Below, piece by piece: positions 47,375-48,190 of a DNA stretch of 64,000 nucleotides; position 1 is the stretch's first letter, and the number at the start of each line of letters is the position of its first letter. A program made the position numbers and the translations under genes. The DNA is from Escherichia coli (GTDB lineage Bacteria; Pseudomonadota; Gammaproteobacteria; Enterobacterales; Enterobacteriaceae), in NCBI RefSeq assembly GCF_003334385.1, contig NZ_QOWN01000006.1; one strand, given 5' to 3'. The notes under the pieces are model-generated. The model was not told where the DNA came from and ran no database searches. It worked only from the letters and a program-made list of their open reading frames with translations.

Positions 47375-48190
47375 ATGTTTTCAATTCAACAACCACTACT
47401 GGTTTTTAGCGATCTTGATGGCACCCTGCTGGACAGTCATAGTTATGACTGGCAACCGGCTGCCCCCTGGCTCAGCCGTTTACGCGAAGCGAATGTTCCC
47501 GTCATTCTCTGTAGCAGTAAAACTTCAGCGGAAATGCTGTACTTGCAAAAAACGTTGGGGCTACAAGGGTTACCGCTGATTGCCGAAAATGGCGCAGTGA
47601 TCCAGCTTGCTGAACAATGGCAGGATATAGACGGTTTTCCACGCATCATCTCAGGTATTAGCCATGGCGAAATCAGCCAGGTTTTAAATACGCTACGCGA
47701 GAAAGAACATTTTAAATTCACGACTTTCGATGATGTCGACGATGCAACCATCGCCGAATGGACGGGATTAAGCCGTAGCCAGGCGGCGCTGACGCAGCTG
47801 CATGAGGCGTCGGTAACGCTAATCTGGCGCGACAGTGACGAGCGTATGGCACAATTTACCGCTCGTCTGAACGAACTGGGCTTACAGTTTATGCAGGGTG
47901 CGCGCTTCTGGCACGTCCTGGATGCCTCTGCCGGAAAAGATCAGGCCGCCAACTGGATTATCGCGACCTATCAACAATTATCAGGCAAACGCCCAACCAC
48001 ACTTGGCCTGGGCGATGGGCCAAACGATGCGCCCTTACTGGAGGTAATGGATTACGCGGTGATTGTGAAAGGGCTAAACCGTGAAGGGGTGCATCTGCAT
48101 GATGAGGATCCGACCCGCGTCTGGCGAACGCAGCGTGAAGGACCGGAAGGCTGGCGTGAAGGGCTGGACCATTTTTTCTCCGCTCGTTAA
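47375..48190 (+). CDS. yedP: Mannosyl-3-phosphoglycerate phosphatase-family HAD hydrolase YedP (271 aa)
   Basis: ORF translation matches YedP; HAD motif DLDGTLL. Confidence 0.93.

Follow-up and report, generated by a model that had tools for sequence, protein, structure and literature searches.

A four-nucleotide stop-to-stop overlap of the convergent genes yedP and dgcQ in Escherichia coli, and how their transcripts probably end

Anatomy of the yedP-dgcQ junction

Near the centre of this analysis are two convergent genes of the window, by which we mean the whole 64,000-nucleotide stretch of Escherichia coli DNA that was analysed. Their coding regions run into each other at their 3' ends:

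47375..48190, plus strand: yedP coding region, 271 aa, a HAD-IIB mannosyl-3-phosphoglycerate-phosphatase-related protein (ORF list, translation, RefSeq and NCBIfam)
48187..49881, minus strand: dgcQ (yedQ) coding region, 564 aa, a CHASE7-GGDEF diguanylate cyclase (ORF list, NCBIfam and RefSeq, which places the start at 49881)
48187..48190, both strands: palindromic TTAA that holds both stop codons and constitutes the 4-nt overlap (sequence)

The stop of yedP is the TAA at 48188-48190, with the plus strand reading CGT TAA GC across 48185-48192, and that of dgcQ is likewise a TAA, encoded on the minus strand by the TTA at 48187-48189 (its reverse complement). The two frames are so placed that their third codon positions lie opposite one another. 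The program-made list of open reading frames gives 47375..48190 (+) against 48187..49896 (-), the RefSeq start of dgcQ being instead at 49881. YedP matched the NCBIfam equivalog NF002976 with 508 bits (cut-off 315) over positions 1-270 of its 271, and DgcQ matched the equivalog NF011955 with 1094 bits (cut-off 408) over positions 1-563 of 564. The preliminary description had named the genes yedP and dgcQ and had them converge in a 4-nt overlap of stops at 48187-48190; the models and RefSeq confirm the names, and the sequence, the ORF list and RefSeq, including its annotation of MG1655, confirm the overlap. DgcQ regulates cellulose synthesis, and the two convergent neighbours are not known to have any functional link.

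The identical 4-nt overlap is present in the RefSeq annotation of strain cM8a, of a K-12 derivative and of MG1655, where yedP (b1955) occupies 2025511..2026326 and dgcQ (b1956) 2026323..2028017. The window was 100% identical to strain cM8a over the 3.2 kb tested, and the yedP/dgcQ region was found in 5,364 of 5,426 complete E. coli genomes. Short overlaps sometimes result from wrong calls, and one might suppose that one of the stops was mis-assigned and that the true coding regions do not overlap. Such errors usually concern start codons, though, and nothing specific in their favor was found here. Stop codons, moreover, are unambiguous, and the end-to-end alignment of both YedP and DgcQ with curated equivalog models indicates that the stops were not mis-called; orthologues in more than 25 genomes also stop at equivalent positions. 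Taken together, the sequence, the equivalog alignments and the orthologue ends rule out an annotation error, the chance of which we regard as negligible.

Several variants were noted in and around the two genes. A T6 run lies in the last codons of yedP (48172..48177), and a protein cluster of 99 members with a length of 316 aa (P0003) appears to represent a YedP frameshift at or near this run. The frameshift would add about 50 codons that are read antisense into dgcQ, and these proteins could be either real slippage variants or homopolymer sequencing errors. A single nr record from E. coli (P0098) is a 246-aa chimera in which about 174 residues from the N-terminus of YedP are fused in frame to the GGDEF end at the C-terminus of DgcQ; it would arise by an inversion with breakpoints inside both convergent genes, or by misassembly. 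On the other side of dgcQ, the spacer to yodC carries about 67 extra bases relative to MG1655, at about 49989..50042 and 50079..50091. The larger of these inserts repeats a neighbouring REP-like unit (GCATGATAAGACGCG...), and is likely to reflect copy-number variation of REP/BIME elements. Farther away, the annotation of the strain that is identical to the window lists drpB (about 55050..55331, minus strand) as a pseudogene with an internal stop.

An ordinary member of a common class of overlaps

Four-nucleotide stop-stop overlaps are the modal length class of convergent overlaps and are built on the tetramers CTAA, TTAA, CTAG or TTAG (Lillo & Krakauer 2007, PMC2174442). The same study counts 58 convergent overlaps in E. 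coli, finds a rho-independent terminator in just 20% of the genes involved, and identifies stop-codon mutation as the best account of such overlaps (PMC2174442). The coding regions of yedP and dgcQ overlap at their 3' ends on opposite strands with both stops within TTAA, and the pair is identical to this class in anatomy, length, phase and the absence of a rho-independent terminator (PMC2174442). We noted no material difference, and the pair is one instance of the class. The overlap is real but statistically unremarkable against chance, and it was already known from the reference annotation and the published excludon catalogue. The window itself holds 11 convergent pairs of coding regions, two of which overlap, namely yedP/dgcQ by 4 nt and the following pair by 12 nt:

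52379..52390: overlap of the convergent yedA (51470..52390, plus strand) and vsr (from 52379, minus strand) coding regions (annotation)

The gap between uspC and otsA measures 6 nt, and the remaining convergent pairs of the window are separated by gaps of 33-392 nt.

The tetramer offers little room for change. Replacement of either central base kills both stops, and two of the three possible changes at each outer base destroy one of them; a change of the first T to C, or of the last A to G, preserves both. Loss of the stop would lengthen yedP by 16 codons and dgcQ by 44. Given that most changes in the TTAA destroy stops, selection on the end of each protein alone would suffice to hold the tetramer in place and to maintain the arrangement, and selection for the overlap itself would not be needed.

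As it stands, the pair matters little, being one of about 58 convergent overlaps of coding regions in E. coli. It is nonetheless a clean example of two genes whose 3' ends form without an intrinsic terminator, and, being expressed at a low level, could be used to examine the parts that Rho, polymerase collisions and RNase III play in forming 3' ends at convergent junctions. The additions of the present analysis are modest, and consist of the finding that the junction lacks a terminator in many genera, the constant phase in which the genes overlap and the probable orphan origin of yedP in E. coli.

Absence of an intrinsic terminator at the junction

A scan for consensus hairpin-plus-U terminators returned 6 sites against 4.7 expected from shuffled sequence, none of them convincing at or near the junction, and no inverted repeat was detected within 100 nt on either side of it. 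On either strand the RNA of the junction is predicted to fold less stably than dinucleotide shuffles (z of +1.0 to +1.9). These three results agree with the preliminary description, which had reported that there is no intergenic terminator. We also ran a stricter hairpin-plus-U scan, reaching up to 300 nt past either stop, on 20 orthologous loci from about 15 genera, and it recovered no terminator, while the same strict scan recovered the DsrA terminator as a positive control. Thus, a G+C-rich hairpin followed by a U tract past the stop, the hallmark of an intrinsic terminator, was found for neither yedP nor dgcQ.

One weak candidate was considered and rejected. This is a plus-strand hairpin at 48151-48167 with a 5-bp stem and a 7-nt loop, followed by the T6 run within the last codons of yedP. 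It lies in translated RNA, such sites are no commoner than in shuffles, and the stricter scan missed it.

The first strong minus-strand intrinsic terminator past the dgcQ stop is the hairpin of dsrA (47093-47117), about 1.07 kb away:

47091..47177, minus strand: dsrA small RNA gene (Rfam RF00014, 102.5 bits)

The dsrA gene, which shares its strand with dgcQ and is divergent from yedP, lies about 1 kb beyond the dgcQ stop. Its hairpin is bidirectional, given the Term-seq 3' ends observed there on both strands, for dsrA (-) and yodD (+) (PMC7815308). Between dsrA and yedP, at 47258..47271, we noted the palindrome GTGACG-NN-CGTCAC, which coincides with a CRP site that Footprint-seq has reported for dsrA/yedP; the centre of the palindrome is TG in the window and CA in MG1655, that is, flipped.

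Conservation of the junction across genera

Orthologous loci were collected by scanning a genome collection with YedP, and those of Salmonella, Citrobacter and Kosakonia were added by protein search and contig look-ups. The tail-to-tail abutment was present in every sampled genome with adjacent yedP and dgcQ, and the junctions took the following forms:

Eight Escherichia species representatives: 4-nt overlap (TTAA in seven, CTAA in one)
Citrobacter amalonaticus and Citrobacter freundii: 4-nt overlap
Pseudocitrobacter: 4-nt overlap
One Enterobacter sp.: 4-nt overlap
Enterobacter cloacae group and others: 16-nt overlap
Leclercia and Silvania: 19-nt overlap
Salmonella enterica: 22-nt overlap
Lelliottia, Huaxiibacter and others: 34-nt overlap
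Kosakonia: 37-nt overlap
Buttiauxella: gap of +1
Franconibacter: gap of +7

The length of the overlap equals 1 modulo 3 in all 27 overlapping junctions, though these come from related genomes and are not independent cases. This phase, which sets the third codon positions opposite one another, is also the commonest among convergent overlaps in general (47%; PMC2174442 Table 2). We further observed that the C-terminal tails of both YedP and DgcQ vary across orthologues. Overlap lengths that drift, together with variable tails, are the pattern expected from point mutation of stop codons within a permissive phase, rather than from an overlap that is itself selected. Furthermore, the gene order rcsA-dsrB-yodD-yedP-dgcQ-yodC-yedI is conserved as a whole block, and given this synteny the adjacency of yedP and dgcQ by itself says little.

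In Pantoea, Erwinia, Sodalis, Serratia, Mangrovibacter and three Halomonadaceae, a GpgS-like gene of 406 aa follows yedP downstream on the same strand. Its product matches the glucosyl-3-phosphoglycerate synthase model over the full length with 344 bits, a score under the 700-bit equivalog cut-off. Two example loci are:

L026, 3824..5044: GpgS-like gene, match to the glucosyl-3-phosphoglycerate synthase model
L031, 3817..5037: GpgS-like gene, match to the same model

In two Pantoea and three Mangrovibacter genomes it is this gene on which dgcQ converges, with either a 4-nt overlap (TTAA or TTAG) or a 7-nt gap. The GpgS-like gene is absent downstream of yedP in the window, and in the 5,426 E. 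coli genomes blastn detected nothing similar to the Mangrovibacter gene. The simplest reading of these gene orders would be that an ancestral yedP-gpgS operon abutted dgcQ, that the core Enterobacteriaceae lost gpgS, and that yedP of E. coli is consequently an orphan.

Overlapping transcripts and double-stranded RNA

Neighbouring genes with overlapping transcripts from opposite strands fall under the excludon concept, which is reportedly due to Sesto et al. in 2013. Given that the coding regions of yedP and dgcQ overlap with no terminator between them, each polymerase must enter the partner gene in the antisense direction, and the geometry makes an overlap of the transcripts unavoidable. Published data bear this out. 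In a survey with ExcludonFinder yedP-dgcQ is one of the 165 convergent excludons of MG1655, a status given to pairs whose transcript coverage overlaps in no fewer than half of 58 RNA-seq sets (PMC12288877). Reads of RNase III-type dsRNA captured by p19 amount to 97-400 RPM for yedQ and 14-92 RPM for yedP (PMC7373196 Table S1b); dgcQ stands at 203 RPM in the S sample, and a level of 100 RPM is reached by just 13.5% of genes (PMC7373196). One of the captured duplexes can be located in the window:

48768..48788, both strands: p19-captured 21-nt RNase III-type duplex inside dgcQ (PMC7373196 Table S3), the plus-strand read matching exactly

This duplex is perfect and lies 578 nt beyond the yedP stop; sense and antisense RNA are thus both present inside dgcQ. 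The antisense RNA could, however, stem from an unmapped internal promoter instead of read-through from yedP.

The pair thus shares with excludons the overlapping transcripts of opposite-strand neighbours and the dsRNA cut by RNase III, and is explicitly listed among them (PMC12288877). The defining outcome of an excludon is mutually exclusive expression, and the likeness of yedP/dgcQ to this class concerns transcript overlap and dsRNA. It also differs from most of the catalogue in that 146 of the 165 E. coli pairs have predicted overlapping terminators (PMC12288877), whereas yedP/dgcQ has no hairpin terminator.

How the transcripts may end

In Term-seq data from three growth conditions, neither yedP nor dgcQ has an assigned 3' end on either strand (PMC7815308 Supplementary file 1), which fits diffuse ends, low expression or both. 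Clean termination ahead of the overlap, which in Term-seq would have spoken against the preliminary description, is therefore not seen. The Rho-dependent termination regions mapped with bicyclomycin in the same study include just one at this locus:

About 49151, minus strand: Rho termination region inside dgcQ (MG1655 2027287, score 2.67; PMC7815308 Supplementary file 2; coordinate-converted)

It lies within dgcQ on the gene's own strand and none is reported just past either stop, in a table that gives solely the best position within 800 nt on either side and for a gene with low coverage. Read counts at this region are low, at 67 and 26 per 800 nt (PMC7815308). As an observation in its own right, it suggests premature termination of the dgcQ transcript in exponential-phase LB.

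Rho suppresses antisense and untranslated transcription, according to Peters et al. 2012 as cited in PMC7815308, and 51.5% of all Rho regions in the bicyclomycin dataset are antisense to genes (PMC7815308). The typical substrate is an untranslated, C-rich and unstructured antisense RNA past a stop, as is the case here. Using 80-nt windows for the ratio of C to G, we found such stretches on both sides of the junction:

48251..48510, plus strand: C-rich, G-poor run-on RNA past the yedP stop, antisense to dgcQ, candidate for Rho loading (C/G 1.4-2.3)
48007..48166, minus strand: C-rich, G-poor run-on RNA past the dgcQ stop, antisense to yedP, candidate for Rho loading (C/G 1.6-2.15)

The run-on RNAs of the orthologous loci likewise carry stretches with more C than G. 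Untranslated, C-rich, G-poor and weakly structured RNA of at least about 80 nt, as Rho terminators have, is therefore available past both stops, but its composition is ordinary for the genome: among random 350-nt segments of the window, 8% reach the same maximum as the yedP side and 17% that of the dgcQ side. After this control we rejected the stretches as specific Rho loading sites and regard them as compatible with Rho. No bicyclomycin-sensitive region is reported just past either stop, and we accordingly infer the action of Rho at the junction by analogy and from composition.

A neighbouring analogue is yedA/vsr, 4 kb away, which also overlaps convergently with no terminator in between and is also on the published excludome list (PMC12288877). 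It differs in the length of its overlap (12 nt) and in that termination by Rho within the partner is documented for vsr by bicyclomycin. A strong Rho region with a score of 10.3 lies in the RNA antisense to yedA, 352 nt beyond the vsr stop, at MG1655 2030096 or about 52027 of the window (PMC7815308); for yedP and dgcQ no Rho signal is reported downstream of the stops. This case also bears on the claim of the preliminary description that the converging transcripts must collide or end in the partner gene. That they run into the partner is borne out by the excludome and the dsRNA. A necessity of collision does not follow, since termination by Rho inside the partner, as documented with bicyclomycin for yedA/vsr, needs none.

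By this analogy, diffuse Rho-type termination inside the partner gene would be the most likely mechanism. Each polymerase would continue into the partner and make untranslated, unstructured and C-rich antisense RNA, and transcription would most likely end diffusely and in a Rho-dependent manner a few hundred nucleotides into the partner, followed by trimming of the 3' end. The transcripts of yedP and dgcQ would thus carry complementary 3' tails that could pair when both are present, and RNase III would cut the paired tails at a low level, as a by-product. Expression was low in the one dataset examined, and polymerase collisions at the junction should accordingly be rare; any regulatory consequence in E. 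coli is probably small. As a whole, we consider it quite probable that the locus represents an ordinary stop-stop overlap with diffuse Rho-type termination within the partner, low-level dsRNA and a small regulatory effect.

Alternative explanations

The conserved abutment and the single phase could still reflect selection that falls outside an explanation by Rho and ordinary overlap. In its stronger form, this idea holds that selection has kept the junction free of a terminator. Strong transcription of either gene would then repress its partner, by interference between polymerases and by the cutting of paired 3' tails by RNase III, with mutually exclusive expression of phosphatase and cyclase as the result. 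The cataloguing of the pair as a convergent excludon of MG1655 (PMC12288877) can be cited in favor of this, yet listing in the excludome requires overlap of coverage alone, which is automatic when coding regions overlap. The dsRNA of dgcQ, at 203 RPM in the S sample, exceeds the level of 100 RPM that 13.5% of genes attain; set against this, the low read counts of dgcQ imply that collisions and RNA pairing should be infrequent. In all sampled genomes that have the two genes side by side the abutment is kept, with 22 nt in Salmonella, 4 nt in Citrobacter and 37 nt in Kosakonia, and in Pantoea and Mangrovibacter the partner that dgcQ overlaps or adjoins is instead the GpgS-like gene of the yedP operon. 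However, the length of the overlap varies between genera, and the synteny of the entire block makes the adjacency uninformative. The preliminary description had suggested that the cyclase and the phosphatase may be subject to antisense interference; our literature search found no paper on such interference or on reciprocal regulation between yedP and dgcQ, nor one that treats both genes together. On balance we consider a selected, functional excludon unlikely. If the overlap did couple dgcQ, and with it cellulose and c-di-GMP signaling, to yedP, c-di-GMP control would gain a further, cis-antisense layer. A historical version of this idea would posit an old, selected excludon between dgcQ and a yedP(-gpgS) unit, of which E. 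coli keeps a vestige after the loss of gpgS. Its basis is the occurrence of the same 4-nt overlap at the GpgS-like gene in Pantoea and Mangrovibacter, and of the same phase at yedP in the core Enterobacteriaceae sampled. Synthesis of glucosylglycerate and c-di-GMP-activated synthesis of cellulose may both use nucleotide-sugar glucose donors. With such common donors, convergent read-through could make the two programmes mutually exclusive; this version appears very improbable to us.

Termination could also be programmed. Bidirectional, collision-driven terminators between convergent genes have reportedly been described by Ju et al. in 2019. At yedP/dgcQ a hairpin pause element in the 3' overlap would then end both transcripts at a fixed site, as at ynaJ/uspE. 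The pair resembles these terminators in being convergent and in that its termination is unexplained by a canonical intrinsic terminator, and bidirectional elements of this kind reportedly govern hundreds of genes in E. coli (Wang et al., bioRxiv 10.1101/2022.10.23.513370). They are, however, characterized by an RNA hairpin in the overlap and by sharp, uniform 3' ends (bioRxiv 10.1101/2022.10.23.513370), and yedP/dgcQ shows neither the hairpin element nor coincident uniform ends. There is no inverted repeat here, the RNA of either strand folds less well than its shuffles, and no hairpin was detected in the 20 orthologous loci. Term-seq shows no discrete 3' ends on either strand, though low expression could hide them. 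The antisense RNA found 578 nt into dgcQ, if it derives from yedP read-through, further implies that transcription proceeds well past the junction. A programmed collision site thus has very little probability in our view, and diffuse Rho-type termination inside the partner genes remains the explanation that we prefer.

Other convergent pairs

Another pair of the window on the excludome list is uspC (plus strand, ending at 3519) and otsA (minus strand, ending at 3526), the 6-nt gap of which is too short to accommodate a terminator. With regard to the signaling role of dgcQ, the c-di-GMP genes number about 29. Eight of the 165 convergent excludon pairs include such a gene, namely ybaA-pdeB, smrA-dgcM, pdeD-yoaE, yedP-dgcQ, dgcE-alkA, insL3-pdeA, pdeC-soxS and ymiD-pdeR (PMC12288877 Table 1). 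This is more than we would expect for a set of that size, and may simply reflect the low expression of these genes.
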